64,000 nt of DNA, from NCBI GenBank assembly GCA_015484595.1, contig WFMM01000152.1, forward strand, positions 3,842 to 67,841, read 5' to 3'. The notes under the pieces are model-generated. The model was given only the letters and a program-made list of their open reading frames with translations. It did not search any database and was not told where the DNA came from. This document shows, in pieces, positions 9,305-46,338 of this stretch. A program made the translations under genes and the position numbers. Source of the stretch: Nitrospirota bacterium (GTDB taxonomy: Bacteria > Nitrospirota > Thermodesulfovibrionia > Thermodesulfovibrionales > JdFR-85). Numbering within the stretch: position 1 is the first letter of the stretch; each line of letters opens with the position of its first letter.

Positions 9305-10954
9305 ATGAAACCACCGCTTAATATAATCCCCCTTGGTGGGGTTGAGGAGATAGGGCTTAACTGCACTGTATTTTACTGTGGCGACGACATACTGGTGGTT
9401 GACGCAGGGCTTATGTTTCCTGAAGACGACATGCCAGGGGTGGACATCGTGGTGCCTGACTTCAGTTACCTTATCGAAAACAAAGACCGCATCAGGGCAC
9501 TTATTCTCACCCACGGACACGAAGACCACACTGGGGCTGTGCCCTTTCTTTTAGAGGAGCTCCAGAGGGAGATTCCCATTTACGGAACCGCCCTTACGCT
9601 TGGGCTTTTAAGGGAGAAGCTCTCTGAGCATTCCCTGAAGGCAGAACTCATTACCGTTAGACCAAGAGACAGAGTAAGTATTGGTTGCTTTGAGGTTGAA
9701 TTCATCAGGGTAACCCACAGCATCGTGGATGGGGTGGGGCTTGCAATAGGCACTCCCCAGGGCTATGTAGTCCACACTGGGGATTTTAAGTTAGACCCCA
9801 CGCCTGTGGATGGTGAGTTACTTGACTTCAACAGGTTTTCACACTATGGAGACAGTGGCACCCTGCTTCTTCTTTCAGACAGCACAAATGCAGAAAAGGG
9901 AGGCTTTACCTATTCAGAAAAGGAGGTAAGAAGGGCACTGGAGGAGATATTTAGTCGTGCAGAGGGAAGGATAATCATTGCCACCTTTGCCTCAAACATC
10001 CACCGAATCCAGCAGATCGTGGATGTAAGCCTTCAGCACGGAAGAAAGATATCCCTCTGTGGTAAGAGCCTGGTCTCAAATGCAAAGATCGCCCTTGAAC
10101 TTGGCTATCTGAGGATGCCAGAGGGTACATGGCTAAGACTACAGGACATAATGTCCCTGCCTGACGAACAGGTCGTTCTTATTACCACAGGGAGCCAGGG
10201 AGAGCCCATGAGCGTGCTTTCAAGGATTGCAATGGATGAGCACAAGGAGATAAAGATAAAACCCAGTGACACGGTGGTGCTTTCCGCAAAGATGATACCA
10301 GGCAACGAAAGGGCGATTGGAAGGATTATAAATCACCTCTTCAAAAGGGGAGCCAGTGTGATATACGAGAAGGTCTCAGAGGTGCATGTATCAGGACATG
10401 CATCAAAGGAGGAGCTAAAGCTGATGATGAATCTCATCCGTCCGCGCTACTTCGTGCCTGTTCACGGTGAGTACAGGCATCTCAGTTACCATGCCATGCT
10501 TGCAAGGAAACAGGGCATTCCACAGGAAAACATCTTTATCCTTCAAAACGGCGATGTGCTTACCATTAACGAAGAGGGAGCATCTGTTACTGGTCAGGTT
10601 CATGCTGGCAGGGTGTTTATCGATGGAAAGGGTGGAATAGAGGACATGGTGCTTCGTGACAGACGCAGACTTGCACACGATGGAATAGTGCTTGTAATCA
10701 TGGGTATGGAGAAGCCAGGCAAGATAGCCATAGGGCCTGATGTAGTATCAAAGGGGTTTGTGCTTGAGGAAAGCTCGCCGGATGTTATCAACGAGATAAA
10801 AGGGGTAATACTTGAACAACTGAAGGCATTGGACAAAGAGGTTCTGGAAGACAGCACCCTCTTAAAGGCCCGCCTGAGAAATAACATAAAAAAATTCATC
10901 CAGAAACGCATGAACAGACGCCCCATGATTGTGCCGATTATATTTGAAATTTAA
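9305..10954 (+). CDS. rnj: Ribonuclease J
   Basis: 549 aa. It has the metallo-beta-lactamase HGHEDH motif plus the beta-CASP layout and a C-terminal domain. Confidence 0.92.
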   Translation: MKPPLNIIPLGGVEEIGLNCTVFYCGDDILVVDAGLMFPEDDMPGVDIVVPDFSYLIENKDRIRALILTHGHEDHTGAVPFLLEELQREIPIYGTALTLGLLREKLSEHSLKAELITVRPRDRVSIGCFEVEFIRVTHSIVDGVGLAIGTPQGYVVHTGDFKLDPTPVDGELLDFNRFSHYGDSGTLLLLSDSTNAEKGGFTYSEKEVRRALEEIFSRAEGRIIIATFASNIHRIQQIVDVSLQHGRKISLCGKSLVSNAKIALELGYLRMPEGTWLRLQDIMSLPDEQVVLITTGSQGEPMSVLSRIAMDEHKEIKIKPSDTVVLSAKMIPGNERAIGRIINHLFKRGASVIYEKVSEVHVSGHASKEELKLMMNLIRPRYFVPVHGEYRHLSYHAMLARKQGIPQENIFILQNGDVLTINEEGASVTGQVHAGRVFIDGKGGIEDMVLRDRRRLAHDGIVLVIMGMEKPGKIAIGPDVVSKGFVLEESSPDVINEIKGVILEQLKALDKEVLEDSTLLKARLRNNIKKFIQKRMNRRPMIVPIIFEI

Positions 10955-10985
10955 GGGCTGATATTTTAAAATTAATGAAACTTCT

Positions 10986-12008
10986 ATGAATGGAAAATCA
11001 AGAAAATACACCCTGCTCAGTCTTATATTACTCACAGCAGCACTGTCTTTAGTCTCATGCGTTGAGATAAAGAAGTCCCGGCCTATCTTAAAGATCAAGG
11101 AATACGAGCGTCTGATTGCAGGCAGGCTTGATGCCCAGTATGTTGGCACAAGGGCATGTCTTAGTGCCTGTCATGCCCACGACGACATAAAAAGGGCCTT
11201 TGACGCAAGCACCATGGGTGCACAGATGAAAGGGAACACTCAAATGCCGATGGTTGATTGTGAGTCCTGTCACGGCCCAGGCAGCCTTGCCATAAAGGGG
11301 ATTACAAAAGAGCTTGTTGAAGAAAACAAAAAAAGAGGAATTAAAACAACCTGTAATTACAAGACCCTGATAGACATTAAAAACCTCCCTGCCCCTGCAA
11401 AGAGCCTTATCTGTCTTAAGTGTCACACTGCAAATGCCACCTTTAACCTTCACGAATGGAACACGGGCATACACGCAATTAACGATGTCTCCTGTCCTGA
11501 TTGCCACAACATACACGGAGGGCCCGACCTTAAGGTAAAGCCCGTTGATACTGCAGAGATGTGTTTTAAGTGTCATCAGGACATCAAGGCTTACTACAAC
11601 ATGCCAAACCACCATCCCGTGCTTGAAAAAAAGGTCTTCTGTACAGACTGCCACAATCCTCACGGAACTACGACAGAGCATCTCCTTAAAAGAGAGACCG
11701 TCAGGCAGACCTGCACACAGTGTCATGGAGAAAAACAGGGCCCCTATCTTTACGAGCACGGTGACCTGACCGAGGAATGCACCACCTGTCATCTGCCGCA
11801 CGGCTCACCCAACAACAACCTTCTTAAGGTCAGAGAGCCCTTTCTCTGCCTTGAATGCCACGAGACCCATCCAGTAAATACCATCACAGGAGAGACCATC
11901 TCTGCTGAAACGAAACAGTACTTCTTTACCCGATGCACTGACTGCCATAGTGCAATTCACGGAACAGACACACCCTCCCCTTCAGGTAAAGGGAGGTTCA
12001 TACAGTGA
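10986..12008 (+). CDS. Decaheme c-type cytochrome lipoprotein, MtrA/DmsE/PioA-like
   Basis: The signal peptide carries the lipobox LVSC. There are nine CXXCH motifs plus one CX3CH (CLSACH). The paired-CXXCH pattern CH.PHG..N.LL....C..CH is present, as is the C-terminal CTDCHSAIHGTDTPSPSGK. Confidence 0.8.
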   Translation: MNGKSRKYTLLSLILLTAALSLVSCVEIKKSRPILKIKEYERLIAGRLDAQYVGTRACLSACHAHDDIKRAFDASTMGAQMKGNTQMPMVDCESCHGPGSLAIKGITKELVEENKKRGIKTTCNYKTLIDIKNLPAPAKSLICLKCHTANATFNLHEWNTGIHAINDVSCPDCHNIHGGPDLKVKPVDTAEMCFKCHQDIKAYYNMPNHHPVLEKKVFCTDCHNPHGTTTEHLLKRETVRQTCTQCHGEKQGPYLYEHGDLTEECTTCHLPHGSPNNNLLKVREPFLCLECHETHPVNTITGETISAETKQYFFTRCTDCHSAIHGTDTPSPSGKGRFIQ

Positions 12009-13942
12009 GGAAGGCCCTGAGGGTTATAAGCACACTTCTAATTTTCTTCTCCTTCGGATTTGTTGCAAGTGCAAAAGAACTGAAACTCCCCACTTACCCG
12101 CCAACATACAGGTTAAGCATCGGGACAAGTCTTAAACATCTTAGTGGAAACCCAAGGGTATCTGAGTACGAGGATATAAGCGACAACATCTACCTATTTA
12201 CAGACACGGCACTCTATCCACTGCCCCACAGGTTTCACCTCTTTGGACACTTCCTCGGTGAACGAGACTACTTTGTTGACACTGGTTATGCCTACAAAGA
12301 CATACTTCTTTCCCGGGTGGTTTCAGTGGGTTTTGTGCATCACACAGACCACTATCCGTATAACTTTAAAGCTCCTTCACCGGTGGAGCTTTATGAAGAC
12401 AGAAACATAGGGGAAGACTACATGCAGAAGGTGCGAAAGACCAGGATGAAGTTAAGGCTTAAATGGCCTGGCTACCCCTATCACCTGTTCCTTGGTTACC
12501 TCAATTACCACCAAACAGGCACTGAGCAGCAGAGGTTTCTTATAGGCTACTTTGGAGATATGAAAAAGGTATCCCAGACGAGGAAGATGACCAAGGATAC
12601 AAAAGAAGTGGTGATTGGGACCAACGGTAATCTTGGCCCGATTGAGATCGAATACAGCCACACAGAAAAGCGATTTGACTCATCAGGGGACACCATCCTC
12701 CGGGATAACTACCCTGAAATTAACATACCACCTATAATCTCAAGACCTGCCGACAACTTTCCACACAACATCTATCCTGACTTTAAAGGTCATGGAGATG
12801 CACTGAAGATACACACCTCATACACGGGCCAGATAGTGGCCTCCTATTCCTTGAAGGGAAATGTGATTAGAAACCTCTACAGTGGAGTTAAAAGAAAGAC
12901 CCTTCGTTCCTCTGCAACCTTTCAATACATGCCCTTTCACGCTTTTTCATTCTTTTTAAGGATGTATTATCTGGATTTGGAGGAATCAAACAGCGATTAC
13001 ACGGTGTTAAGGGGTTTTTCAAACCAGATAAGATACGATGTCAGAAAGTCCATAGATGTAAAGGAAAGAGGACTTCATCTGTCAGCACGCTTAAGGCCCC
13101 TGAAGGAGTTAACCCTGATTCCCTCTTACAGCATAAAGGTAAAGGACAGAACTGACACCGATGGATGGATTTTGGCTAACGGGAATACAACCTCCCAAAC
13201 CTATGAACTCAGGATGCTTTCATCACCTTTAAGAAGGCTTAAGATAAGAGCAGGCTACAGCCATATTCACACCCAGAATCCCCTTTATAACTTTGTACCA
13301 GAGGACAGAGACAGGTTAAAGCTCTATCTATCTTACCTGACCTCACCCCTTCTACAGCTTACACTTTCATATTCATTCACTCATGACAAAAGGGGCAACA
13401 CCAGCTATTATGACCACTTTTCTGAAACCTTCTACAATGGCAAAGACAGAAAGGGCACGCGCCACTTTGTTTTACTGAGTGCGTCATCATCCCCTATTTG
13501 TTCGCTAAACATTACGGCATCAGTGGGTTATTACCGATTAAAAGAGGTCTCAACCTTGACATTTAAACAGCTAAAGGGTGATGGCACTCCTGTATTCGTC
13601 TCTCCCTTTATGGAGCACTCTGTGCCTTATAAAGACAGGGCTATCACATACATGCTGGACATCTTTAGAAAGATTAACCAGAGGTGGGATGTCTCACTAT
13701 CTCTGTCAACCACACACTCAAAGGGATACTTCAGGACATCCACCCAGCCACTTTCGGGGCTTGGTGGGCTTTCAAAAATTGACAACCGTGACAGCTCTTT
13801 AAGGCTGAGCTCCAATTATAAGGTGTTAAAGGATACTTCCATAGGAGTTGAGTTGCTTTACGAATCTTACAAAGACAAAATCAACCCCGACCTTGACGGC
13901 AGGTTATACAGAGGGCTGATAAAGATAACAAAAAATCTTTAG
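12005..13942 (+). CDS. Predicted outer-membrane beta-barrel, MtrB/PioB-like partner of the decaheme
   Basis: 645 aa with the signal peptide ...FGFVASA/KE. It is rich in Tyr/Ser/Thr/Arg with alternating-hydrophobic strand patterns (SLSLSTTHSKGYF, IGVELLYESYKD). Its GTG start overlaps the cytochrome stop (GTGA). Confidence 0.6.
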   Translation: MRKALRVISTLLIFFSFGFVASAKELKLPTYPPTYRLSIGTSLKHLSGNPRVSEYEDISDNIYLFTDTALYPLPHRFHLFGHFLGERDYFVDTGYAYKDILLSRVVSVGFVHHTDHYPYNFKAPSPVELYEDRNIGEDYMQKVRKTRMKLRLKWPGYPYHLFLGYLNYHQTGTEQQRFLIGYFGDMKKVSQTRKMTKDTKEVVIGTNGNLGPIEIEYSHTEKRFDSSGDTILRDNYPEINIPPIISRPADNFPHNIYPDFKGHGDALKIHTSYTGQIVASYSLKGNVIRNLYSGVKRKTLRSSATFQYMPFHAFSFFLRMYYLDLEESNSDYTVLRGFSNQIRYDVRKSIDVKERGLHLSARLRPLKELTLIPSYSIKVKDRTDTDGWILANGNTTSQTYELRMLSSPLRRLKIRAGYSHIHTQNPLYNFVPEDRDRLKLYLSYLTSPLLQLTLSYSFTHDKRGNTSYYDHFSETFYNGKDRKGTRHFVLLSASSSPICSLNITASVGYYRLKEVSTLTFKQLKGDGTPVFVSPFMEHSVPYKDRAITYMLDIFRKINQRWDVSLSLSTTHSKGYFRTSTQPLSGLGGLSKIDNRDSSLRLSSNYKVLKDTSIGVELLYESYKDKINPDLDGRLYRGLIKITKNL

Positions 13943-13956: not shown

Positions 13957-14895
13957 TTGCGAGTCCTGAAGACCACATTGATGCTGGTTGTTGTTTTTGG
14001 GTTTATTCTTTGCACACCTTTAAAGGATTATCCCAAGAGGGTTATCCGGGTGGGTGTGGTATTTTCCGCAGACATCCCCTACTACAGGGCACTTCACAGG
14101 AGATTTCTTAAGGTTATAAAGGAGAAACTTCCTGGAACAGAGATTGAGTTTTTAGTTCAGAAACCAAACCCCGACCCCCTGGCTTGGACTAATGCCGTAA
14201 GAAAGCTACTGGTTTACGACTCAGAGATAATAGTGGTTTACGGCTCTGGGGCCCTGAAGGCAGCACTTCAGGAGGTTTCCGATACGCCAGTGGTCTTTGC
14301 GGGTACCTTTAATACCAGTGAGCTAACCCAAAGGGGCAAAAGAAACCTTGGTGGCATCTTTTACAAAATAAACATCAACAGCATTATGAGGTATATGAAA
14401 AAGCTAAAAAAGCCAGGCCATGTTGACATACTCTTTTCAGAAATAGAGCCCTCTTCGCAGGAGGAGGCAAAAGCACTGATGAAACAGTGCATGGAGTTTA
14501 GATTTGACTGCTCCCTTCACGGGGTAAGTAACTATGACGAACTTACATACTATGCCGCAGGCGTTGATGCTGACTCGGTTTTCGTAGCTGAAAGTGGCCT
14601 GATCGCAAAGTACCTGTCTGAGTTTCACAAAGGATTTCTCAAAAAAAGGATTCCCCTTGTAACCACCATGCCTGGCCTTGAAGATATGTCTGTCTTTTCC
14701 CTTGAGCCTGACATAAAACACGAAGCCGATGGCCTTGCAGAGTTACTGGCAAAGACAGTTAAAAACAAAGGAAAAACAGGTGGTGTTATGACCATAAGAA
14801 AGACGAGACTCGTATTTAACATGGGCCTTGCAAAAAAATTACAGACAAACATACCCATTGAGCTTATATCCTATGCTGACGAGGTAATAAAATGA
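13957..14895 (+). CDS. Periplasmic ABC_sub_bind-like binding protein (TTG start)
   Basis: It has a signal peptide. The pattern RVGVVFSADIPYY...IIVVYGSGALKAA...TPVVFAG resembles the PF04392-type layout. Confidence 0.5.
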   Translation: MRVLKTTLMLVVVFGFILCTPLKDYPKRVIRVGVVFSADIPYYRALHRRFLKVIKEKLPGTEIEFLVQKPNPDPLAWTNAVRKLLVYDSEIIVVYGSGALKAALQEVSDTPVVFAGTFNTSELTQRGKRNLGGIFYKININSIMRYMKKLKKPGHVDILFSEIEPSSQEEAKALMKQCMEFRFDCSLHGVSNYDELTYYAAGVDADSVFVAESGLIAKYLSEFHKGFLKKRIPLVTTMPGLEDMSVFSLEPDIKHEADGLAELLAKTVKNKGKTGGVMTIRKTRLVFNMGLAKKLQTNIPIELISYADEVIK

Positions 14896-15785
14896 AGAGG
14901 TTTATATTGATAATAGTTTTATCATCAATGCTGATACAGAACGCCTATGCAGAAAAGGAACAGCCCCTTCTTATAGGGTTAATACCAGAGCAGAACATAT
15001 TTAAACAGTTTGAGCTTTACCTTCCCCTTGCGAGTTATCTCAGCAAAAAAACCGGCATAAAGGTAAAGTTTACCATCCTTAGCAGGTATGGAGACATAAT
15101 TGACAGATTCATACAGCGGGGGCTTGCAGGTGCTTTCTTTGGGGACCTGACAGGAGCGATAGCCATAAAAAAGTTATCAGTAGAGCCAGCCGTAACTCCT
15201 ATAACTATCTATGGCTCAAGCACATCCTATGGCTTTATAGTGGTTAGAAAGGACTCTGGTATAACCAAGGTCGAGGACATGCGAGGCAAGATTATGGCCT
15301 TCGTTGACAAGGCAAGTGTGGCAGGCTATCTATTTCCCATTGCCTATCTAAAACGGCATGGGGTCAATGATTACAAAAAATTCTTCAGCGAATATTACTT
15401 CACCGGTGGCTTTGATGCATCTCTTTATGATGTGGTGGACGGAAGAGCCGATATAGGTTGTGTTAAAAACACGGTATTAAATGAGATAATTCGCAAAGAG
15501 CCCTCTGTGATCAAAGAGATAAAGATAATCGCCCAATCCCCACCAATGCCGACAAATGTATTGTGTCTCAGCAAGTCTTTAGAGCCTGAAGTGAAGTCAA
15601 AGATCATAAATGTCTTGCTTGACATGGCAAACGACCCCTTTGGTAAGAACATCCTTAAAAACATGAAGTTCAAAAGGTTTATAAGGGCCTACGAGGATAA
15701 CTTTATGCCGGTCTATCGTTTGTTAGAGGGAATTAAGGAGACACCCGAAACATATAACTACAGGATAGATGATGAGTTAAAATGA
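14892..15785 (+). CDS. PhnD-like periplasmic substrate-binding protein
   Basis: It has a signal peptide (..NAYA/EK). The pattern LLIGLIPEQN...YGFIVVRKDSGI...ASVAGYLFP is the PhnD family layout. It overlaps the previous gene by 4 nt. Confidence 0.7.
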   Translation: MKRFILIIVLSSMLIQNAYAEKEQPLLIGLIPEQNIFKQFELYLPLASYLSKKTGIKVKFTILSRYGDIIDRFIQRGLAGAFFGDLTGAIAIKKLSVEPAVTPITIYGSSTSYGFIVVRKDSGITKVEDMRGKIMAFVDKASVAGYLFPIAYLKRHGVNDYKKFFSEYYFTGGFDASLYDVVDGRADIGCVKNTVLNEIIRKEPSVIKEIKIIAQSPPMPTNVLCLSKSLEPEVKSKIINVLLDMANDPFGKNILKNMKFKRFIRAYEDNFMPVYRLLEGIKETPETYNYRIDDELK

Positions 15786-15797
15786 GGTTTTAAGGGC

Positions 15798-17777
15798 ATG
15801 TTAAAGCGGATTGTGAAAAATCTTTTCGTACTATTTCTTCTGTTCAGTATCGGTGGAGGGGTTGCCATATACTCTCTTTCAAGGGTAACAAGAGAGTTAG
15901 AGACTCTTATAAAACTACACAGAGTGGAGATAATCAGACAAAACCTTATCATAAACCTCAAGACCGTCCAGAGCAATCTCTTTACCCTTGGCACCACCTT
16001 TGGTCCTGAACTGGATGTTATAGTAAAGAATGTTATATCCCTTAACGCTGCTATTAACAGATGCTCTGGGTGCCATCATTCTGAAGAGATTGCCTCGAAG
16101 CTGCGAAACCTGAAAAACCTCATAGAGGATTACAAAGGCGCAATCAGCGTCTTTATAACCACCACTGCAAACCCTCAAAGGGTTAGGCGATTGAAACAGG
16201 CAGCCGTTGATATTGGAGAAATCCTCCTTACAAAGGCACAGGAGATGACCTACATTGCCCATAAGAGACTGCAGCAACGGACTCAAAAGGCACTTAAGGA
16301 AGTGGGGATAATCCGTTACATCCTGTTTTTTAGCCTCCTTGGCACGATGATGATGGGATTTGTCGTTGCAAAAGGACTTACTACCGAGATAGTTACACCT
16401 CTGAAGAAGCTCTCTGAAGCAGCACGGAAACTAAAATCAGGCGTGCTCGGCTATACAGTAAAAATTCAAGATCATACAGAGCTTGGAGAGCTTGCCAATG
16501 CATTTAACGACATGAGTTTATCTATAAAGAAGGGACACGAACAAACACTCAGTTACATGCAGAAGCTAAAGGGACTCCACAACCTTGCCCTATCACTTCA
16601 CATGGTATCAAGGGAATCGGACATCTACAACGAGTTGATACAGGGGCTTTCCGAGATAATCGCTGCCAGAGAATATCTGCTTTACCTTAAGTCAGACAAT
16701 CAGTTTGAAGTGGTAGCATCTCTTGAAAACACTGACAATGTTATGAGATTTAAGGGCAGTTTCCCTGAGGAAACCATCAACAGACTCTTTGACGAAAGCG
16801 GAAAAAGGGCAGTTGTCTCTTACAGGGAAGACCACATATCCCATGCATTGCTGCCTGATGAGCTAAAAGGGTATGAAAGTCTCTGTATAATGTGGATTAC
16901 CGAAAGGAATAATCTACAGGGTTTTCTGCTCATAGCTGATGTTGAAAAAAGCGAGATTACTGAAGATGACATCAGACTTCTAAGCATAATCGTAAATAAC
17001 TTTTCAGTTGCCATGGAAAACATTCGTCTGTACAAAGACCTGATGGTGCAGATGCAGCGACTGAAAGAGGCTCAGGAACAGCTCGTTCAGGCAGCCAAGC
17101 TTGCAGCCATTGGAGAGCTTGCAGCAAATATAGCCCACGAAATAAACAATCCCCTTACCACGATACTTGGCTATACGGAGTTACTGAAGGAGGAGGAAGA
17201 CATCGAGGGAATAAAGAGGGACCTTGAAATAATTGAAAGTGAATCATTGAGGGCAAGAGAGATAGTGCAGCAGCTCCTTGAGTTTTCAAGGAAGCGTCCT
17301 CTTAAAATCGAACCTGTTAACATTGAGGCCCTCCTTGACGACATAAAAAAACTCGTTCTTCCCAAGATGAGAGAAAAACAGATAAAACTCATAGAGGAAA
17401 AATCCCACATACCTGTTATCGAGGGAGACAGGAATCAGCTAAAACAGGTATTTCTGAACCTTATTAACAATGCACTTCAGGCAATGCAAAACAAGGGCAC
17501 ACTGAAGATATCAACCGGTGAAAAGGATGGTTTCGTGTTTATAGAGATAACCGACAATGGCATAGGGATACCTGACGATGTCCTTCCAAGGATATTTGAG
17601 CCCTTCTTTACCACGAAGAAGGAACGGGGAACTGGCCTTGGTCTTCCCATAAGCTACAGGATCGTGGAAAACCACGGCGGAAGGATAGAGGTAAAAAGCA
17701 GGTTAAACATAGGAACAACCTTCAGGGTTTACCTGCCCACTGAGGTTCCAAGTGAGAAGAAGACCCTGAAGGTCTAA
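15798..17777 (+). CDS. Sensor histidine kinase (TM, periplasmic domain with CXXCH, TM, HAMP, GAF-like, HisKA, HATPase)
   Basis: The H-box is IAHEINNPLT, and the N/G boxes are NLINNALQAM and DNGIGIP...GTGLGL. The periplasmic loop contains NRCSGCHH (nt 16062-16076). Confidence 0.85.
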   Translation: MLKRIVKNLFVLFLLFSIGGGVAIYSLSRVTRELETLIKLHRVEIIRQNLIINLKTVQSNLFTLGTTFGPELDVIVKNVISLNAAINRCSGCHHSEEIASKLRNLKNLIEDYKGAISVFITTTANPQRVRRLKQAAVDIGEILLTKAQEMTYIAHKRLQQRTQKALKEVGIIRYILFFSLLGTMMMGFVVAKGLTTEIVTPLKKLSEAARKLKSGVLGYTVKIQDHTELGELANAFNDMSLSIKKGHEQTLSYMQKLKGLHNLALSLHMVSRESDIYNELIQGLSEIIAAREYLLYLKSDNQFEVVASLENTDNVMRFKGSFPEETINRLFDESGKRAVVSYREDHISHALLPDELKGYESLCIMWITERNNLQGFLLIADVEKSEITEDDIRLLSIIVNNFSVAMENIRLYKDLMVQMQRLKEAQEQLVQAAKLAAIGELAANIAHEINNPLTTILGYTELLKEEEDIEGIKRDLEIIESESLRAREIVQQLLEFSRKRPLKIEPVNIEALLDDIKKLVLPKMREKQIKLIEEKSHIPVIEGDRNQLKQVFLNLINNALQAMQNKGTLKISTGEKDGFVFIEITDNGIGIPDDVLPRIFEPFFTTKKERGTGLGLPISYRIVENHGGRIEVKSRLNIGTTFRVYLPTEVPSEKKTLKV

Positions 17778-18433
17778 ACCTTTTTAACGAATATCTCCTT
17801 TGCAATGTCAGGGTCAAGGGCTACGGTTGTTTCTTCTACCTGAACAACCACGGAAGGCCACTTCTGTAAAAGCTTTATCTTTGAGCCAGCATTTATTCCT
17901 ATTGAGTTTAGCCTGTTTAGCCTTGAAGAGTCTGAAGGCACTATGTAGACGATACGCCCTTCCTTTCCAACCTCAAAATCATTCAGTCTCATAACAAGTG
18001 GCCTTATATCAACGCTGTATCTCTTACAGCATTCCCCTCGTGGGATTGGTTTTCCGTGAGGACAGGTTGGGGGGTGACCCAGGAATGTGCAGACGCTGTC
18101 AGTTAACTCCTCACTGAGTATGTGCTCAAGCTTGCAGGCATCCTCGTGGATGAACTCCTCCTTCATATCAAACACATCTGCAAAGAGCCTCTCGGCAAGC
18201 CTGTGTCTCCTGACTATCCCCTTAGCAATCTCTCTGCCCTCAGGTGTGAGTTTTATACTGTCGCCTGAGACCTCTACAAAACCCCTCTTTTGTAATCTGC
18301 TAACTACCGCCTCTATCTCATCATCGTCAGAGTAGCCATAAAGACGCTGAAGCCCGCTTTTTCCCTCCTCCTCTAAAAGCCAGATAAGCTCCAGAGCCTC
18401 CTCTAACCTCTCTTCGTCAAAACTCTTGTGCAT
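17774..18433 (-). CDS. DtxR/MntR-family metal-dependent regulator with C-terminal FeoA (SH3-like) domain
   Basis: 219 aa. The segment RRHRLAERLF...CKLEH...CPHGKPIP matches DtxR metal-site residues, and the tail is FeoA-like (FEVGKEGRIVYI). Confidence 0.8.
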   Translation of the reverse strand: MHKSFDEERLEEALELIWLLEEEGKSGLQRLYGYSDDDEIEAVVSRLQKRGFVEVSGDSIKLTPEGREIAKGIVRRHRLAERLFADVFDMKEEFIHEDACKLEHILSEELTDSVCTFLGHPPTCPHGKPIPRGECCKRYSVDIRPLVMRLNDFEVGKEGRIVYIVPSDSSRLNRLNSIGINAGSKIKLLQKWPSVVVQVEETTVALDPDIAKEIFVKKV

Positions 18434-23854: not shown

Positions 23855-23922
23855 TCACCTCCCGGTTTATGTGGAGCCCTCAAGGAGCTCTGACTTTTTG
23901 GCTTTTATTTATAAACTCAAGG

Positions 23923-23988
23923 AACTCAATCAACGCAACGAACGCAATAAACGCGATAAACGCAACAAACGCAATTAACGCAACCAAC
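23923..23988. repeat. 9-bp tandem array, AACGC orientation (about 6-7 units)
   Basis: The array reads aactcaat|caacgcaac|gaacgcaat|aaacgcgat|aaacgcaac|aaacgcaat|taacgcaac|caacc. Confidence 0.8.
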
Positions 23989-24157: not shown

Positions 24158-25417
24158 GTGCATTATTTTCGTTACAAAAACAATACACTTTATGCAGAGG
24201 AGGTCTCGGTTGCCTCACTTGCAAAGCAGTACGGCACACCCCTGTACATCTATAGTGCCAGGACTCTCCGTCGCCACATAAAGGCATACACCGATGCATT
24301 AAAAGGTCTCCCCCACATTGTCTGTTACGCAGTGAAGGCAAATTCCAGTGCAGCCATACTCAGGCTACTTGGCTCAATGGGGGCAGGAGCTGATGTGGTC
24401 TCAGGTGGTGAACTCTACAGGGCACTCAGGGCAGGCATACCTGCCCAAAAGGTGGTCTTTGCAGGAGTGGGAAAGACAGACGAAGAGATTGAATATGCCA
24501 TCAAAAAGGGGATCCTCATGTTTAACATAGAGTCCCTTGAGGAGATGGAAAATATAAATCGTATCGCCCAGAGGTTAGGCAAAAGGGCTTCTGTTGCACT
24601 GAGGATAAACCCTGACATCGACCCTGAGACCCATCCATACATATCAACAGGGCTTAAGAAGAACAAGTTTGGCCTCCCCATTGAGAGGGCACTTGAGTTT
24701 TACAGGGAGGCAAGCAGCATGAAGAACCTCAGAGTTGTTGGTATCCACAAACACATAGGCTCACAGATAACGAAGGTAACCCCCTTCGTTGATGCCCTTA
24801 AGAGGGTAATGGTGCTTTTTGACAATCTTAAACAGGAGGGTATTAACATAAAGTATCTGGACATTGGTGGAGGGCTTGGCATTCAGTACAACGACGAAAA
24901 CCCTCCACATCCAAAGGAGCTTGCAAAGAGGATAATACCTGTTATTAAGGGCAGAGACGTCACCCTGATAGTGGAGCCTGGCAGGTCGATTGTAGGAAAT
25001 GCAGGCATCTTTGTAACAAAGGTGTTATATACTAAAGAAGGCGTTGACCGCAGGTTCATAATCGTTGACGGTGGAATGAATGACCTTCTAAGGCCCTCAC
25101 TTTACAATGCCTATCACCACATCATCCCTGTTAAGAGAAGGAGGGTGAAAAAGGTATTTGCAGATGTGGTTGGTCCCATTTGCGAGTCAGGGGACTTCCT
25201 TGCAAAGGGAAGGGAGCTTCCCTCGGTTTCAAGGTCAGACCTCCTTGCAGTGCTAAGTGCCGGGGCCTATGGTTTCAGCATGAGCTCCAATTATAACAGC
25301 CGTCCAAGGCCTGCAGAGGTGCTGGTTGATGGAAACAAACACTACCTGATAAGGAAACGGGAAACCCTTAACGACCTTATCAGAGGAGAAAGGATACCCG
25401 AACACCTGAGGGGATAG
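24158..25417 (+). CDS. lysA: Diaminopimelate decarboxylase (GTG start)
   Basis: 419 aa with the typical LysA sequence (YAVKANS, GGGLGI, EPGRSIV, CESGD). Confidence 0.95.
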   Translation: MHYFRYKNNTLYAEEVSVASLAKQYGTPLYIYSARTLRRHIKAYTDALKGLPHIVCYAVKANSSAAILRLLGSMGAGADVVSGGELYRALRAGIPAQKVVFAGVGKTDEEIEYAIKKGILMFNIESLEEMENINRIAQRLGKRASVALRINPDIDPETHPYISTGLKKNKFGLPIERALEFYREASSMKNLRVVGIHKHIGSQITKVTPFVDALKRVMVLFDNLKQEGINIKYLDIGGGLGIQYNDENPPHPKELAKRIIPVIKGRDVTLIVEPGRSIVGNAGIFVTKVLYTKEGVDRRFIIVDGGMNDLLRPSLYNAYHHIIPVKRRRVKKVFADVVGPICESGDFLAKGRELPSVSRSDLLAVLSAGAYGFSMSSNYNSRPRPAEVLVDGNKHYLIRKRETLNDLIRGERIPEHLRG

Positions 25418-25419
25418 AT

Positions 25420-26307
25420 ATGACCATCAACTTCACCAAGATGCACGGACTTGGAAATGATTTTATCTTAATTGACTCTATAAGTCAGGAGGGGTTAAAC
25501 AATCTGAAGGATGACAGTCTCCGAAAAACCATTGTTTTCCTCTGTAACAGGCGTTTTGGTATAGGTGCTGATCAGCTGCTTATGCTTCTTCCTTCAAAAA
25601 TAGCCGACTTTCGTATGCGGATATTCAATGCCGATGGCTCTGAAGTGGAGATGTGTGGAAACGGGATAAGGTGTTTTGCAAAGTACATATGGGAGCGGGG
25701 AATATCCGAGAAGAACCCCCTTGAGGTTGAAACACTTGCAGGCATTATAAGACCCGAGAAAAAGGGAGAACTCGTGAGGGTTGACATGGGAGAGCCCGAA
25801 TTCAGGCCTGAAAGGATACCTGTGTATGCAGAATATCTCAACAGTGAAAAACTAAAGGAGCCTGACCGGATAATTGGCTATCCCCTTAAGATTGAGGGAA
25901 GGGAGTTTTTGCTTTCCTGTGTTTCAATGGGGAACCCACACTGTGTTATAGTGGTAAACGATACAAAGAGCTTTCCGGTAAGTTATTATGGCCCGTTAAT
26001 TGAAAACCACCAGCTCTTTCCAAATCGCACCAATGTTGAGTTCATAGAAATCATTAGCAGACAGGAGATAAACATGAGGGTCTGGGAGCGAGGTGCTGGT
26101 GAGACCATGGCCTGTGGGACAGGTGCCTCTGCATCAGCCGTGATATCTGCATTAAGGGGACTTACCGACAGAGAGGTGACCGTGCACCTGCTTGGTGGTG
26201 ACCTTCATATTGAATGGGCTCAGGACAATCATGTTTACATGACCGGCCCAGCCACAGCCGTCTTTGACGGAACAATCAATTTGCCCAAAGAGGTAGCAGA
26301 TGCCTGA
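25420..26307 (+). CDS. dapF: Diaminopimelate epimerase
   Basis: FTKMHGLGNDF is present, along with the two catalytic Cys contexts (MCGNG and ACGTG). Confidence 0.95.
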   Translation: MTINFTKMHGLGNDFILIDSISQEGLNNLKDDSLRKTIVFLCNRRFGIGADQLLMLLPSKIADFRMRIFNADGSEVEMCGNGIRCFAKYIWERGISEKNPLEVETLAGIIRPEKKGELVRVDMGEPEFRPERIPVYAEYLNSEKLKEPDRIIGYPLKIEGREFLLSCVSMGNPHCVIVVNDTKSFPVSYYGPLIENHQLFPNRTNVEFIEIISRQEINMRVWERGAGETMACGTGASASAVISALRGLTDREVTVHLLGGDLHIEWAQDNHVYMTGPATAVFDGTINLPKEVADA

Positions 26308-26578
26308 AAGGAGAAGGTTTACGAGGAAGCCTGTAAAAGTAGAGGTTAGATATACAGTTACAGACCTTCAGACCACCTATGCATCTGTGGTTGAGGCAAA
26401 GGGAATAATAGTGGATATTTCCTCAAAGGGCTTTGGCATTGTAACCAGTTATCCTCTTAAAAAGGGACATGTTATAACCATAAGAGAGGGTAAAAGGGAA
26501 GGTCTGCCTGATTACGGAATGGTCAGGTGGTCAGACAGCCATAACAACCTGATAAGGGCAGGATTGACCTTTAGTTGA
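26300..26578 (+). CDS. Single-domain PilZ protein (putative c-di-GMP receptor)
   Basis: 92 aa. RRRFTRKP supplies the RxxxR motif and DISSKG supplies the D/NxSxxG motif. The start overlaps the dapF stop by 8 nt. Confidence 0.7.
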   Translation: MPERRRFTRKPVKVEVRYTVTDLQTTYASVVEAKGIIVDISSKGFGIVTSYPLKKGHVITIREGKREGLPDYGMVRWSDSHNNLIRAGLTFS

Positions 26579-26784
26579 TTCTGATAGGGCGGTTTATCAT
26601 ATAAACATTGTCAGCAAGGAGATTTTAAAGCGAGGTTGTTTGAGGGGCTCTGCCCCTCAAACTCCCCAATATGGTTAAATTATTTATCCTTATTGGGGTT
26701 CCAAAGGGGCGTAGCCCTTTCGAGGCTTCCGCCCCTCAAAAAAAGCCTGTTGAACAGGCTCTAAAACCAAAGGGAGGTAGGACC

Positions 26785-27657
26785 ATGATTCAGGGTTCAA
26801 TAGTTGCAATAGTAACACCCTTTAAAGACGGAAAGGTGGACGAGAAGGCATTTTCTGACCTGATAGAGTGGCACATAGCAGAAGGCACCAATGCAATAGT
26901 ACCCTGTGGAACCACCGGTGAGTCAGCAACACTTGATTACGAGGAGCATTACAATGTAATAAAAATTGCAATAGAGGTGGTCAACAAGAGAGTTCCAGTT
27001 ATTGCTGGCACAGGTGCAAACTCAACAGAAGAGACCATAATGATGACAAAGAAGGCAGAGGAACTGGGAGCAGATGCGGCCTTGCTCGTTGCCCCTTACT
27101 ATAACAAGCCTACTCAGGAGGGCCTTTACAGACACTACAGGGCAGTGGCTGAAAGCGTTGACCTTCCTTTAGTACTATACAATGTCCCTGGAAGAACCGC
27201 AGTAAACATTACGCCCACAACGGTTGCAAGGCTTGCAGAGTTTGAAAACATCGTGGCAATAAAAGAAGCCTCGGCAAACATGCGTCAGGTAAGCGATATC
27301 ATAAGGCTCTGTGGTGACAGGATAACCGTGCTTTCCGGTGACGACTTTACCACATTTCCTTTGATAATGTTAGGTGGTAAAGGCGTCATCTCTGTTTCAG
27401 CCAACATAGTGCCAGCAAAGGTGGCACAGCTATGCCGTCTTGCCAATGAAGGAAAGGTTGAAGAGGCAAGGAAACTGCACTACGAACTCGAGCCCCTCAA
27501 TGCTGCAATGTTTCTTGAAACCAATCCCATTCCAGTAAAAACCGCTCTTTCACTGATGGGAAAGATTAGAGAAGAGTTCCGTCTGCCCCTCTGTGAGATG
27601 TCTGATGCAAACAGGGAAAAACTAAAAGAAGTGCTTAAGGGGTATGGATTGATATAG
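26785..27657 (+). CDS. dapA: 4-hydroxy-tetrahydrodipicolinate synthase
   Basis: I chose the start MIQGSIVAIVTPF because AAGGGAGG sits 7 nt upstream. The track start at 26671 reads through a hairpin-rich leader. The TTGE and YNVP motifs are present. Confidence 0.93.
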   Translation: MIQGSIVAIVTPFKDGKVDEKAFSDLIEWHIAEGTNAIVPCGTTGESATLDYEEHYNVIKIAIEVVNKRVPVIAGTGANSTEETIMMTKKAEELGADAALLVAPYYNKPTQEGLYRHYRAVAESVDLPLVLYNVPGRTAVNITPTTVARLAEFENIVAIKEASANMRQVSDIIRLCGDRITVLSGDDFTTFPLIMLGGKGVISVSANIVPAKVAQLCRLANEGKVEEARKLHYELEPLNAAMFLETNPIPVKTALSLMGKIREEFRLPLCEMSDANREKLKEVLKGYGLI

Positions 27658-27710
27658 CGTTTATCGCGTTAATTGCGTTTATTGCGTTGATAGCGTTAAT
27701 TGAGTTGTTA
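27657..27710. repeat. 9-bp tandem array, GCGTT orientation, starting inside the dapA stop codon
   Basis: The array reads gcgtttatc|gcgttaatt|gcgtttatt|gcgttgata|gcgttaatt|gagttgtta. Confidence 0.85.
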
Positions 27711-33351: not shown

Positions 33352-34551
33352 ATGCCACAGAAACATCCAACGCCACTAATTGACGAGCTGGAAAAGGGCG
33401 CTTTTCCAAGTTTCGTCAAAGAGATCAAGAGGGCAGCTGAAAGCAGCAATGTTCAGGACAACAACTACGCTCAGGACCTTCTTGGTCAGTTGGAACTCTC
33501 CTACAAGGAGAAAAAGACACACTGGAAACACGGTGGTATCGTAGGTGTCAGGGGTTACGGTTCTGGTGTTATCGGCAGATACTCTGATATTCCTGACCAG
33601 TTCCCTGGTGTTGCACACTTTCACACAATCAGGGTTAACCAGCCAGGTGGATTCTTCTACACAACCGAGGCGCTTCGCGAGATCTGTGACATCTGGGACA
33701 AGTACGGAAGTGGTCTTACAAACATGCACGGCTCCACAGGTGACATAATCCTTCTTGGCACCAAGACAGACAACCTGGAGCCTGTCTTTGCAGAGCTATC
33801 CTCAAGGGGCTGGGACCTCGGTGGTTCAGGTTCAGCAGTGAGGACCCCAAGCTGTTGTGTTGGCCCAGCAAGGTGTGAGTGGGCTTGCTATGATACCCTT
33901 GAGCTTACCTACCAGATAACGCAGAGGTTCCAGGATGAACTTCACAGGCCAATGTTTCCATACAAGTTTAAATTCAAGATGGCAGGATGTGCAGTGGACT
34001 GCATTGCATCCATTGCCCGTGCTGACATGTCAATAATCGGTACCTGGAAGGGTAACATCCAGATTGACCAGGACGAGGTCAGAAATTATGCCAAAAATGG
34101 CATGGACATACAGGCAGAGATCGTTGACATGTGTCCAACTGGCTGCATGAGCTGGGATGGAAATGAGCTTAAGATCAACGATGAAGACTGTAACAGGTGC
34201 ATGCACTGTATTGCCAAGATGACCAAGGCCCTCAGACAGGGTGAGGAAAAGGGTGCAACCATCCTGCTTGGTTCAAAGGCACCAATCGTTACAGGTGCAC
34301 TCATGTCATGGGTAATCGTTCCATTTATCAAGCTTGAGCCACCCTATGAGGAGCTCTTTGACCTGGTCGAGAGGATCTGGGAGTTCTGGGATGAGCATGG
34401 TAAGAACCGTGAAAGGGTCGGTGAGCTTATAGAGAGGATGGGCTTTCCTGTATTCCTGAAGGAGACCGGAATCGAGCCGCATCCTGCAATGGTGAAAGAG
34501 CCAAGGCGTGACCCATTCTTCTTCTGGTCAGAAGAGGATGTAGAGAAGTAA
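33352..34551 (+). CDS. dsrA: Dissimilatory sulfite reductase alpha subunit
   Basis: 399 aa with siroheme/FeS Cys clusters ([14 protein letters not shown]) and a ferredoxin insert (CPTGC...CNRCMHC). dsrB follows with strong RBSs. Confidence 0.95.
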
Positions 34552-34582
34552 AAAATCAATTTTATAATATAAGGAGGTTATT

Positions 34583-35656
34583 ATGTCAGAATTACCACAG
34601 AGACAAACAGACATTGGACCACCGCATTATAGTAAGTTTTTACCACCTGTTATAAAGGAAAACTATGGTAAGTGGAGATATCACGAGATCTTAAGCGCTG
34701 GTGTAATGGTCCATGTTGCAGAAAGTGGTGCAAAGGTATGGACTGTCAGGGTTGCTTCACCAAGGCTTGTTTCAACTGACTTTATCAGGGACATCTGTGA
34801 GATCGCTGACAAGTACTGCGATGGTCATCTCAGGTTCACCACAAGGCACAATGTGGAGTTTCTCGTCTCTGATGAGAGCAAGGTTGACCCACTGGTCAAC
34901 GAGCTCAAGGAAAAGGGTTACATGATTGGTGGTATCGGTGACAGGATAAGTAATGTCGTCCATACCCAGGGCTGGGTGCACTGTCATTCAGCAGCAACCG
35001 ATGCTTCAGGTCTTGTTAAGGTGATGATGGATGAGCTCCATGAGTACTTCACAGAAAAGGAGCTCCCAGCAAAGGTAAGGCTTGCAGTTGCCTGCTGCGT
35101 TAACATGTGTGGTGCAGTTCACTGCTCAGACATAGCCCTTGTGGGTGTTCACAAAACACCACCAAGAATCGAGCACGATAAGGTCAAGAACCTCTGCGAG
35201 ATTCCATCAACCGTTGCATCCTGTCCTACCAGTGCTATCAGTCCTGATCCAGCAAAGAAGAGCGTCAAGATAAAGATTGAAAAGTGCATGTACTGTGGTA
35301 ACTGCTACTCTGTCTGCCCTGCAATGCCGATTTCTGATCCCAAAAACGACGGTGTTGCAATAGTGGTAGGTGGTAAGGTCAGTAACCTCAGGTCAAATCC
35401 AAAGTTTTCAAAGCTTGCTGTGCCGTGGCTTCCAAACAATCCACCAAGATGGCCTGAGGTGGTTGAGAATGTAAAGAAGATCCTCAACGCCTACATAGAG
35501 GGTGCAAAGAAGCATGAAAGGCTTGGTGAGTGGGTAGAGAGGATCGGATGGGAGAAGTTCTTTAAGGTAACAGGTCTTCCATTCCAGCTCCAGCACATCG
35601 ATGACTTCACCTTTGCCCGTGAGACCTGGAGAATGGCAGCCACCTTTAAGTGGTAA
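34583..35656 (+). CDS. dsrB: Dissimilatory sulfite reductase beta subunit
   Basis: 357 aa containing HTQGWVHCHSAATD, ACCVNMCGAVHC and CMYCGNCYSVCP. Confidence 0.95.
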   Translation: MSELPQRQTDIGPPHYSKFLPPVIKENYGKWRYHEILSAGVMVHVAESGAKVWTVRVASPRLVSTDFIRDICEIADKYCDGHLRFTTRHNVEFLVSDESKVDPLVNELKEKGYMIGGIGDRISNVVHTQGWVHCHSAATDASGLVKVMMDELHEYFTEKELPAKVRLAVACCVNMCGAVHCSDIALVGVHKTPPRIEHDKVKNLCEIPSTVASCPTSAISPDPAKKSVKIKIEKCMYCGNCYSVCPAMPISDPKNDGVAIVVGGKVSNLRSNPKFSKLAVPWLPNNPPRWPEVVENVKKILNAYIEGAKKHERLGEWVERIGWEKFFKVTGLPFQLQHIDDFTFARETWRMAATFKW

Positions 35657-35665
35657 AATAAAACA

Positions 35666-35694
35666 CAGAGGGGCAGCGTTGCTCTGCCCCTCTG
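35666..35694 (+). other. GC-rich intercistronic stem-loop between dsrB and dsrD, with no U-tract
   Basis: CAGAGGGGCAG-cgttgct-CTGCCCCTCTG gives an 11-bp perfect stem. ATTAAC follows it. Confidence 0.6.
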
Positions 35695-35716
35695 ATTAAC
35701 AGAGAGGAGTGAGGAG

Positions 35717-35935
35717 ATGGATAGAGAGGAACTGAAAAAGATCATTTATGAGTTGGTTGAAAAGTCTATGGGAAAGAAGCTTTACAAGCCTGGTGATCTT
35801 TTTAAGAAGCTTGAAAAGGAACACGGTGTTTCAAAGGCAGAGGCAAAGGCTGCACTTCGTGAGCTCATGGACGCAGGCACACTTATTTATTCATACAAGG
35901 GTGGAAGCTATGTAGAGATTCCACCAAAGGAATAA
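35717..35935 (+). CDS. dsrD: DsrD (small winged-helix activator of DsrAB)
   Basis: 72 aa in the typical position after dsrB. The sequence KLYKPGDLFKK...AKAALRELMDAGTLIYSYKGGSYVEIP fits DsrD. Confidence 0.9.
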   Translation: MDREELKKIIYELVEKSMGKKLYKPGDLFKKLEKEHGVSKAEAKAALRELMDAGTLIYSYKGGSYVEIPPKE

Positions 35936-35954
35936 GATCTAAACAAAAAACTCG

Positions 35955-39461: not shown

Positions 39462-39877
39462 TGGCACTTGTGTTTATACAGGGCTGTCTTCCCACTGTGG
39501 AGGTAAAAAAAAGGGCTGGCATGATGGCAAAAGGGGAAGAAAAAAACAGTAAGCCGGTGCTTAAGTGGGAAGAAAGGATGAAAAGCGGAGAGTATGATGA
39601 GTTTATGAAAGAGGCACAGGGTGTATACCAGAGTGCAGAGGATCCTCAACTGAAACAGAAGGCCCTTTATTACATGGCGCTAACACAGATACACCCTGAG
39701 AATCCATCAAGGGACCTGAAAAGGGCTGAGGGCTATTTCAGAAAGCTTATAGTCCTGTATCCTGATGGCATTTATGCTCAGGAATCAAGGGTCTGGCTCG
39801 GGCTTATCTCTATTATTGAGAAATCCAAAAAGATAGACATTGAGATAGAAAAGAAAAAGCAGGAGTTTTCCAGATAA
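39404..39877 (+). CDS. Lipoprotein with TPR-like helical repeat
   Basis: The N-terminus MGGKQRRWWKHLQVLVASLVALVFIQGC has a basic n-region, a hydrophobic core and a lipobox. It overlaps the kinase 3' end by 58 nt. A GTG at 39461 is an alternative start. Confidence 0.5.
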   Translation: MGGKQRRWWKHLQVLVASLVALVFIQGCLPTVEVKKRAGMMAKGEEKNSKPVLKWEERMKSGEYDEFMKEAQGVYQSAEDPQLKQKALYYMALTQIHPENPSRDLKRAEGYFRKLIVLYPDGIYAQESRVWLGLISIIEKSKKIDIEIEKKKQEFSR

Positions 39878-39878
39878 C

Positions 39879-41234: not shown

Positions 41235-41238
41235 CTTT

Positions 41239-46334: not shown

Positions 46335-46338
46335 TACC

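Follow-up and report, generated by a model that had tools for sequence, protein, structure and literature searches.

Sensor domains that carry a covalently attached c-type heme have so far been described with PAS/Cache or GAF folds, as in DcrA, GSU0303, GSU0582, GSU0935, Tll0287/sCache_heme and MsmS, and a role in sensing redox state or gas has been proposed for those of the PAS/Cache type (PMC8396549, PMC12889525). According to a 2026 preprint, Cache_heme is the instance of a periplasmic sensor having taken over a cytochrome motif. Among systems that work with periplasmic substrate-binding proteins (SBPs), AioX, ArxX and ArrX sense ligands on behalf of kinases and do so independently of transporters (PMC5908839, PMC8050422), and among purely helical sensors the domain of the kinase Adeh_2942 has been described as a Tar-like bundle that lacks a cofactor and matches no Pfam model (PMC3831638). 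Here we examine three genes in a 64,000-nucleotide stretch of a Nitrospirota genome (contig WFMM01000152.1, positions 3,842 to 67,841; hereafter the window), which encode two SBPs and a sensor histidine kinase. Judged by its sequence, the periplasmic domain of this kinase represents a putative helical c-heme sensor family, which we found described nowhere and which is absent from Pfam, NCBIfam and the PDB.

All three genes lie on the forward strand, with SBP1 at 13957-14895, SBP2 at 14892-15785 and the kinase at 15798-17777. SBP1 and SBP2 overlap by 4 nucleotides (ATGA), and 12 nucleotides separate SBP2 from the kinase, the same junctions that had been reported in an earlier note made from this DNA alone. 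The kinase has 659 residues, ordered as a first transmembrane helix (TM1), a putatively heme-binding four-helix-bundle (4HB) sensor, a second transmembrane helix (TM2), HAMP, GAF, HisKA and HATPase_c. Hydropathy places TM1 at about residues 5-28 and TM2 at about residues 170-194, leaving a loop of roughly 145 residues between them. HAMP domains are always cytoplasmic. Because K3, R4 and K7 supply positive charges N-terminal to TM1 and a HAMP domain follows TM2, the loop at residues 28-171 (15879-16310) is periplasmic. Within it stands NRCSGCHH (16056-16079), which includes CSGCH at residues 89-93 (16062-16076) and, extended by one residue, CSGCHH (16062-16079), a c-heme attachment motif (C89, C92, H93) followed by an invariant second histidine (H94). 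Motif coordinates, hydropathy and HAMP placement thus bear out the earlier claim of a CXXCH in a periplasmic loop, and the cytoplasmic location that was named as grounds for dropping it is not what we find.

The remainder of the protein is that of a class I histidine kinase. HAMP spans residues 197-244 (16386-16529; PF00672, 4e-11), and a weak GAF-like region at residues 275-408 (16620-17021; GAF_3, 2.6e-4) scores below its gathering cut-off. The kinase core (17112-17744) comprises HisKA at residues 439-500 (PF00512, 1.1e-17) and HATPase_c at residues 543-649 (PF02518, 2.8e-29). In the translation we can read the H-box AHEINNPL with its histidine and the N, G1, F and G2 boxes of HATPase_c (NLINNALQAM, DNGIGI, FEPFFTTK, GTGLGL). 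Its best NCBIfam matches are AtoS, ZraS and NtrB-like kinases.

A chance occurrence of the heme motif is excluded, since the kinase has only three cysteines in total, two of them in CSGCH, a CXXCH is expected in such a loop at a rate of about 6e-5, and all 154 of the family members we retrieved carry it. The loop combines the motif with the exported topology expected of c-type cytochromes, two of which, both decahemes, are encoded in the window. Cytochrome c maturation systems hemylate practically every CXXCH that is exported unfolded, so a periplasmic CXXCH would receive heme in a cytochrome-rich host. Such a maturation system can be expected here because the organism makes multiheme cytochromes; no genes for one were seen in the window.

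Conservation points the same way across a wide sequence range. A first search returned six homologues with 35-55% identity to the kinase, all with CxxCHH. Searched against 1.84 billion representative proteins (clusters at 50% identity), the sensor-domain profile matched 274 proteins at E<=1e-3, 223 of these at E<=1e-10, with the domain at residues ~26-171 in nearly every case; a word-indexed protein search with the sensor alignment yielded 10 short proteins only. The median identity of family members to the window's sensor is about 33%. CxxCHH is present in 153 of the 154 members and CxxCH in every one, so the homologues without the motif that would have marked it as accidental did not appear. 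Alignments of 136 and of 76 sequences show no variation at C89, C92, H93 or H94, and H41, E44, R47, L50, Q58, Y112, S117, T121 and M150 are 80-96% conserved. His41 (codon 15918-15920, helix 1), a candidate distal heme ligand, is kept in 95% of the family, and Met150 (codon 16245-16247, helix 4), an alternative candidate, in 81%; both are kept at 78/78 Nitrospirota loci, and 135 of 136 members have at least one of the two.

What follows the sensor varies. Among 76 members scanned, 75 have a HAMP domain directly after it, and the outputs include kinases (53), receivers (22), GGDEF (11) and EAL (8) domains, joined in places by PAS or GAF linkers; none has a methyl-accepting chemotaxis protein (MCP) output. 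Given this variety, the sensor domain behaves as a self-contained input domain. The members so far all come from uncultured anaerobes, namely Nitrospirota and metagenome-assembled genomes (MAGs) labelled Desulfobacterota/Deltaproteobacteria, Zixibacteria and Verrucomicrobia. In the NCBI names of homologous MAG proteins we read Nitrospirae, Thermodesulfovibrionales, Zixibacteria, Deltaproteobacteria, Deferrisomatales and Verrucomicrobia, with breadth beyond Nitrospirota resting on few such names.

The predicted fold is helical throughout. AlphaFold2, run once with 7 sequences and once with 31, predicted the same up-down four-helix bundle both times (mean pLDDT scores of 78.4 and 84.1), with helices at residues 27-63, 70-90, 96-121 and 126-171 and no sheet in either model. 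Among PDB structures, those that Foldseek matches best to the models are 4HB sensor domains without heme, with TM-scores of 0.7-0.85. They include the sensor of the Adeh_2942 kinase (4k0d, 0.78-0.82), Vc1313 (up to 0.85), PcaY_PP, and the N-terminal domain of LytS in complex with the binding protein XylFII (5xsj, 0.72/0.85); against 4k0d, 8bsa/8bsb and 5xsj together the scores run from 0.78 to 0.85, as expected of a 4HB sensor fold. The four-helix bundle guessed at earlier is therefore upheld as a fold by both models and by the structural matches. The Geobacter-type sensors that had been offered with it as precedent do not fit, since they have a PAS/Cache fold (PMC8396549, PMC12889525) whereas this domain is predicted to be a four-helix bundle. 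Helix-length arithmetic on the models suggests that the motif occupies the end of the short helix 2 nearest the membrane, on a level with His41 and Glu44 (helix 1) and with Met150 (helix 4). The predicted membrane-distal half contains a further group of conserved residues (Q58, D73, Y112, S117, T121, A124, R128).

Existing domain collections do not contain this bundle. No Pfam model covers it in the 76 members (E<=1e-3) or in five isolated domains (E<=10), and at these same thresholds neither PF11845 (sCache_heme) nor PF12729 (4HB_MCP_1) nor PF05227 (CHASE3) matches. NCBIfam matches the kinase core and leaves the sensor domain without a match, and the sensor profile found nothing meaningful among the PDB sequences. 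One homologue is labelled 'CHASE3 domain sensor protein' by JGI, an identity supported neither by Pfam nor by hhalign, in which the family profile was compared with the one CHASE3 kinase of the window, a single-sequence target, and gave a probability of 0.1%. The members' source labels are limited to 'HAMP domain-containing', 'PAS domain S-box' or 'hypothetical'. In the literature available to us we found no description of a helical c-heme sensor, a CXXCHH sensor or a 4HB with CXXCH.

The two binding proteins belong to different families. SBP1 (312 residues, TTG start, hydrophobic N-terminal signal) is of a divergent ABC_sub_bind (PF04392) type. The window's own SBP1 has no Pfam match but matches the TrpX model at 1e-6; 13 of 14 orthologues match PF04392, and the orthologue profile matches PDB entries 6hni, 3lft and 3lkv at 1e-21 to 1e-23. 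SBP2 (297 residues, with a Sec signal ending NAYA/EKE) belongs to the PhnD/PtxB/AioX family (PF12974, Phosphonate-bd, 2.2e-52), with PDB matches to PtxB (8e-22), ArrX (1e-16) and AioX (3e-15); PhnD is homologous too. Neither has transporter genes in the 64-kb window, and no permease, ABC ATPase or response regulator adjoins the SBP and kinase genes. The kinase is followed by a convergent DtxR/MntR-FeoA gene and then recJ, secF and secD, in agreement with the earlier statement that no permease, ATPase or regulator follows. The orphan status claimed for the kinase also stands: the window's only response regulator, of the NtrC type at 39879-41234, lies just 3' of a CHASE3 kinase, and for this reason it could not be assigned as the partner.

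To place the locus among its relatives we compared gene neighbourhoods at 80 genome loci, all from Nitrospirota, the phylum toward which the DNA pattern used in the scan is biased. An SBP2 orthologue lies directly 5' of the sensor gene at 58 of the 78 loci whose upstream sequence is long enough. SBP1 orthologues occur at 40 of 74 and are confined to Thermodesulfovibrionales, and no SBP1 match was found on the contigs of more divergent family members. The cytochrome and barrel genes that precede SBP1 in the window are present at 11 of 57 loci, a convergent DtxR-like gene lies 3' of the sensor at 19 of 75 (18 of the 40 loci with SBP1), and a response regulator, of the REC-GAF-HD-GYP type, lies directly 3' at 17 of 75. 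Even where the flanks are rearranged (L002, L010), the genes for cytochrome, barrel, both SBPs and kinase stay together.

Beyond this set, on contigs with more divergent members, the sensor genes are directly preceded by SBP2 orthologues that reach 375-421 bits with the SBP2 profile; these sensors are hybrid kinases at L083 and at L087/L088 and a GGDEF-EAL protein at L085. At L086 a truncated SBP2 gene (164 bits) precedes a kinase with an NtrC regulator, and at L084 no SBP2 stands beside the sensor. SBP2 remains with the sensor where cytochrome and porin are absent, and we saw no permease or ATPase gene at any locus examined or in the window. What is conserved, then, is the pairing of SBP2 with the putative heme sensor, to which SBP1 and the porin-cytochrome pair are successive additions in particular lineages. 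Because the SBP2-sensor pair recurs without that pair of genes and with other outputs, the sensing module is autonomous, and a single lineage has coupled it to the porin-cytochrome pair. The earlier idea of binding-protein partners that work without a transporter is accordingly sustained, with the PhnD-like SBP2 as the conserved partner. The proposed tie to the upstream porin-cytochrome pair holds in the subclade that includes the window and fails elsewhere. The co-occurrence check suggested for it, of the SBP-SBP-kinase set with such pairs, gives the pair at 11 of the 31 SBP1-positive loci with at least 5 kb of upstream sequence.

Three further features of these neighbourhoods deserve mention. 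At L012 (6916-12383) the SBP2-kinase unit is duplicated in tandem, and a second PhnD-like gene with a kinase of the same heme-4HB type lies 3' of the five-gene block. At L061-L082 (for example L063, 9395-10900), where the kinases have about 490 residues, the next gene encodes a REC-GAF-HD-GYP response regulator, and genes for another kinase and for an NtrC-type regulator come after it, an arrangement that ties this sensor type to cyclic di-GMP (c-di-GMP) turnover and transcription. At L052-L060, which have no adjacent SBP2, the membrane-distal half of the bundle shows the paired replacements Q58E and Y112F. These could mark an SBP-docking or ligand site; they represent one evolutionary event and so are no proof of a docking site.

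The ligand pocket of SBP2 sets the window's clade apart. In AioX the pocket is formed by Tyr88, Cys106, Tyr131, Ser161, Ser163, His192 and Asp210 (PMC5908839), and most SBP2 orthologues keep Tyr66, Thr142, Thr/Ser144, His174 and Asp187, the counterparts of the PhnD/AioX oxyanion pocket; the T-x-T/S and the pocket histidine are retained in about 80%. The window's SBP2 reads Ser-Val-Ala at residues 142-144 (15315-15323) and Phe at 174 (15411-15413). Phe replaces the pocket histidine also at L003, L004 and L007, and Ala replaces the second Ser/Thr also at L001 and L003, with Ser kept there at L004 and Thr at L007. These replacements suggest that the ligand of SBP2 changed in the window's clade, where it may not be an oxyanion.

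We favour, with moderate confidence, the reading that this helical domain senses redox state or gas by means of a c-type heme and receives a further input from periplasmic binding proteins; heme attachment, the identity of the ligands, SBP docking, the signal and the regulon are parts of it that we infer. A Tar/NarX-like 4HB sensor would have acquired a single c-type heme, attached by the cytochrome c maturation system through thioethers at Cys89 and Cys92, with His93 as its proximal ligand. The place we propose for the heme is where the short helices 2 and 3 come nearest the membrane, flanked by the two long helices, 1 and 4, which in the predicted bundle run on into TM1 and TM2. His41, Met150 or the invariant His94, possibly that of the partner subunit, could supply or exchange the sixth ligand. 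A change in redox state or ligation, brought about by the periplasmic electron pool or by binding of NO, CO or O2, would rearrange the lower bundle and shift helix 4 and TM2, and this shift would act via HAMP and GAF on autophosphorylation. As a second input SBP2, with or without SBP1, may dock on the bundle in the manner of AioX-AioS, TorT-TorS and XylFII-LytS, kinases that depend on SBPs (PMC5908839, PMC8050422).

The window's three genes are the last three of a compact five-gene unit, whose first two encode an MtrA-like decaheme cytochrome and an MtrB-like porin. Because the kinase gene shares this unit with the MtrA/MtrB-like pair, the signal is probably linked to trans-outer-membrane electron transfer in the window organism and its near relatives. 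The output would pass to an unlinked response regulator, probably of the NtrC or HD-GYP type, since the kinase core resembles AtoS and ZraS and relatives of the kinase have such regulators.

Several observations weigh against this interpretation. That family members carry heme at all is something we infer, and the proximity of the motif to His41, Met150 and His94 comes from helix-length arithmetic on predicted secondary structure. If His41 and Met150 substituted for one another as ligands, their losses should avoid each other, and among 136 members we saw no such signal (one double loss against 1.3 expected). The window's SBP2 is without two of the usual pocket residues (Thr/Ser144 to Ala, His174 to Phe), and an adjacent SBP2 is missing at 20 of 78 Nitrospirota loci, so SBP2 is not obligatory. 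The MtrA/MtrB-like pair accompanies only the 11 of 31 comparable loci given above, and the promoter and terminator matches that would bound the five-gene unit occur at background frequency.

Among the alternatives, the one that fares best is that the heme is a gas sensor for NO, CO or O2, like cytochrome c' or sCache_heme, and reports neither redox state nor the electron conduit. The sole biochemically characterised c-heme sensor family of similar architecture binds NO (PMC12889525; 10.64898/2026.05.25.727664). Five-coordinate or labile six-coordinate states are plausible given that Met150 is missing in 19% of members and His41 in 5%, and c-di-GMP enzyme outputs are typical of NO signalling. 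On the other hand, His41, His94 and Met150 are invariant at all 78 Nitrospirota loci, a pattern that speaks for six-coordinate heme, most of the hosts are strict anaerobes, and the MtrAB-like linkage in the window's clade points to redox. As an exclusive explanation we therefore consider gas sensing unlikely. The gas and redox readings are not mutually exclusive, and gas sensing is best seen as a variant of the model we favour.

It has less going for it to suppose that CxxCHH, His41 and Glu44 form a thiol-disulfide switch or a periplasmic Cys2His2-type site that binds Fe(II), Zn, Cu or Mn, which would make the kinase a direct sensor of metal or oxidant. The predicted bundle has four to five conserved residues able to ligate metal at a single level, a DtxR/MntR-FeoA gene is a recurrent convergent neighbour (19 of 75 loci), the MtrAB-like pair upstream is iron-related, and the evidence for heme is indirect. 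Against this stands the exact C-x-x-C-H spacing in 154 of 154 members, which is the signature of cytochrome c maturation, together with that machinery's broad action on exported motifs; the small residues conserved on helix 4 (A136, G140, A154) and Arg47 would also suit a porphyrin pocket. A metal site or thiol switch is less likely than a heme site, and we think it quite improbable. We give as little credence to the notion that the SBPs are orphan transporter components or porin-cytochrome accessories, kept beside the kinase by inherited gene order with no co-sensing, which would suit the loci without SBP2, the restriction of SBP1 to one order and the relatedness of all the Nitrospirota loci, through which synteny could descend, but not the high-scoring SBP2 orthologues 5' of sensors in divergent clusters with differing outputs and flanks, the lack of permease and ATPase genes throughout, or the persistence of SBP2 beside the sensor where cytochrome and porin are gone.

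Returning to the heme-sensor reading, we consider next the genes that surround it. Upstream of SBP1 the order is argD, argF, RNase J, decaheme cytochrome and barrel, all 5' of the module. The cytochrome (10986-12008, forward strand) is an MtrA/DmsE-family decaheme with nine CXXCH and one CLSACH (TIGR03508, 248.5 bits with a cut-off of 192.2; Paired_CXXCH_1, 1.5e-30). CLSACH, a CX3CH, is the first of its heme motifs, and a lipobox-like LVSC at the end of its signal peptide suggests a lipid-anchored periplasmic protein. The MtrB/PioB-like outer-membrane beta-barrel (12005-13942, forward strand) overlaps the cytochrome gene by 4 nucleotides and scores 29.3 bits against PF11854 (cut-off 23) and 18 bits against TIGR03509 (cut-off 240), as a distant member would. 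Its N-terminal ~220 residues (12005-12700) match the NCBIfam GSU2204-family at 1.5e-20, far under the cut-off, and the cytochrome scores 233 bits against the GSU2203-family model, whose cut-off is 325. The two may thus be related to the little-studied Geobacter GSU2203/GSU2204 pair, with the difference that the window's barrel, unlike GSU2204, has no CXXCH.

A sigma-70-like promoter match (TTGAAA-17-TAAAAT, 10944-10972, forward strand) lies in the spacer between RNase J and the cytochrome gene and could be the start of a five-gene operon; promoter matches in this region are no commoner than in shuffles, and only the position of this one is suggestive. At the kinase stop codon a terminator-like hairpin, AGACC-CTGAA-GGTCT with a T-rich tail (17761-17785, forward strand), matches the consensus, in a scan where terminator matches do not exceed their frequency in shuffles. 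The DtxR/MntR-type metalloregulator gene with its FeoA (SH3) domain (17774-18433, reverse strand; PF02742, 8e-30; PF04023, 7e-15) converges on the kinase, with a 4-nucleotide overlap at its 3' end, and is kept at the loci counted above. Its position there may reflect a functional link to iron or manganese, or inherited gene order alone.

The host is a cytochrome-rich, sulfate- or sulfite-reducing Nitrospirota bacterium, as judged from dsr-like genes and decahemes in the window, an identical kinase protein in the MAG GCA_027071435.1, and the closest loci, which are from Nitrospirota/Thermodesulfovibrio MAGs. Spread over 33352-37355 and 45291-50369 are dsrA- and dsrB-like genes, a gene for a CobB/CobQ-like (DsrN-type) amidase, and DsrM-, DsrK-, DsrO- and DsrP-like genes. 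A second signalling unit (38019-43746) lies between the dsrAB/dsrN-like and dsrMKOP-like genes, with a CHASE3/4HB-HAMP histidine kinase (38019-39461), a 157-residue open reading frame, the NtrC-type sigma-54 response regulator already mentioned (39879-41234) and a 697-residue cytochrome with ten CXXCH and a C-terminal cbb3-type cytochrome c domain (41653-43746). Elsewhere in the window, tandem arrays of 9-bp units at 23913-23988 (AACGCAACG-like) and 27653-27707 (GCGTTAATT-like) flank lysA-dapF-dapA-like genes (24158-27657). The cores of the AACGCAACG and GCGTTAATT arrays are mutually reverse-complementary, and the arrays may be regulator-binding sites.

Our findings bear on how often cofactors have entered extracytoplasmic sensing. 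A second, structurally unrelated scaffold with an invariant CxxCHH would show that the co-option seen in Cache_heme happened more than once, and a helical sensor would offer a simple system in which to follow a redox or ligation signal through TM2 and HAMP. The family amounts to at least 274 clusters at 50% identity and defines a domain in what current annotation calls merely a HAMP-domain or PAS-domain protein. Its dedicated PhnD-like partner suggests that chemical and redox inputs are joined in one receptor, and the Thermodesulfovibrionales module is a first candidate regulator of MtrAB-like conduits in sulfate-reducing Nitrospirota. A bolder combination of these ideas, which we offer tentatively and think rather less likely to hold than to fail, is that this is the first cofactor-bearing 4HB extracytoplasmic sensor, that its c-heme motif was gained independently of Cache_heme, and that it combines two inputs. 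Lying between helices 1 and 4 close to the membrane, and possibly ligated across the dimer by the second histidine of CxxCHH, the heme would read the redox state of the periplasmic electron pool by exchanging electrons with the co-encoded MtrA-like decaheme, and the PhnD-like protein, joined in this order by the ABC_sub_bind-like one, would report a dissolved substrate. A sulfate-reducing Nitrospirota cell could thereby decide when to run its outer-membrane electron conduit.

Comparison with known systems shows which parts of this arrangement have precedents. The MtrAB, PioAB and MtoAB systems resemble the window's pair in combining a DmsE/MtrA-family decaheme with an MtrB/PioB-like barrel encoded by overlapping genes; the window's pair differs in lacking an MtrC-like outer cytochrome and in its marginal barrel score. 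We found no description in the literature of a two-component sensor cotranscribed with an MtrAB-like pair.

The c-heme PAS/Cache sensors (GSU0582, GSU0935, DcrA and Tll0287/DUF3365, that is, sCache_heme, PF11845) share with the window's family a single CXXCH between two transmembrane helices, a HAMP domain followed by kinase, MCP or GGDEF-EAL outputs, and anaerobic, cytochrome-rich hosts. They differ in having an alpha/beta fold with the CXXCH in a helical insertion, whereas the domain described here is predicted to be all-helical with its motif at the end of helix 2. The window's family also differs from them in its lack of a PF11845 match, in having no MCP output among the 76 members, and in its dedicated SBP partner. 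We considered DcrA as a helical precedent and rejected it, as it is PAS-type according to a review (PMC8396549) and the window's family has no MCP output.

Class II cytochromes, namely cytochrome c' and cytochrome b562, are alike in being four-helix bundles with one heme. Cytochrome c', which binds gases, also has a CXXCH, located in helix 4 close to its C-terminus. These proteins are soluble electron carriers, unlike the membrane-anchored signalling domain of the window with its CXXCH at the end of helix 2. A PDB sequence search revealed no similarity between them and the sensor domain, and bRIL fusions were among its weak Foldseek matches.

The AioXSR, ArxXSR and ArrXSR systems are alike in placing a gene for a PhnD-family SBP directly 5' of a membrane kinase gene, with no transporter genes; relatives in the window's family have NtrC/AtoC-type regulators, and the window's kinase core is itself AtoS/ZraS-like. 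The sensor of AioS is sCache-like and heme-free (PMC8050422), unlike that of the window. In the window's SBP2 the AioX pocket is not preserved, as the counterpart of His192 is Phe and the second Ser/Thr is Ala. The AioXSR systems have a regulator and arsenic enzyme genes nearby; the window's locus has neither, but has an extra, second SBP.

Closest in predicted structure are the heme-free 4HB sensors (Adeh_2942 4k0d, Tar/Tsr, NarX, PcaY_PP, Vc1313 and LytS-N), which share the fold, the size, the position between TM1 and TM2 and the HAMP domain that comes next. There is no detectable sequence kinship, in that the window's domain has no 4HB_MCP_1 or CHASE3 match. These sensors work without a cofactor, and what they bind is either an SBP or a small ligand between the subunits of the dimer, whereas the bundle in the window bears a heme motif.

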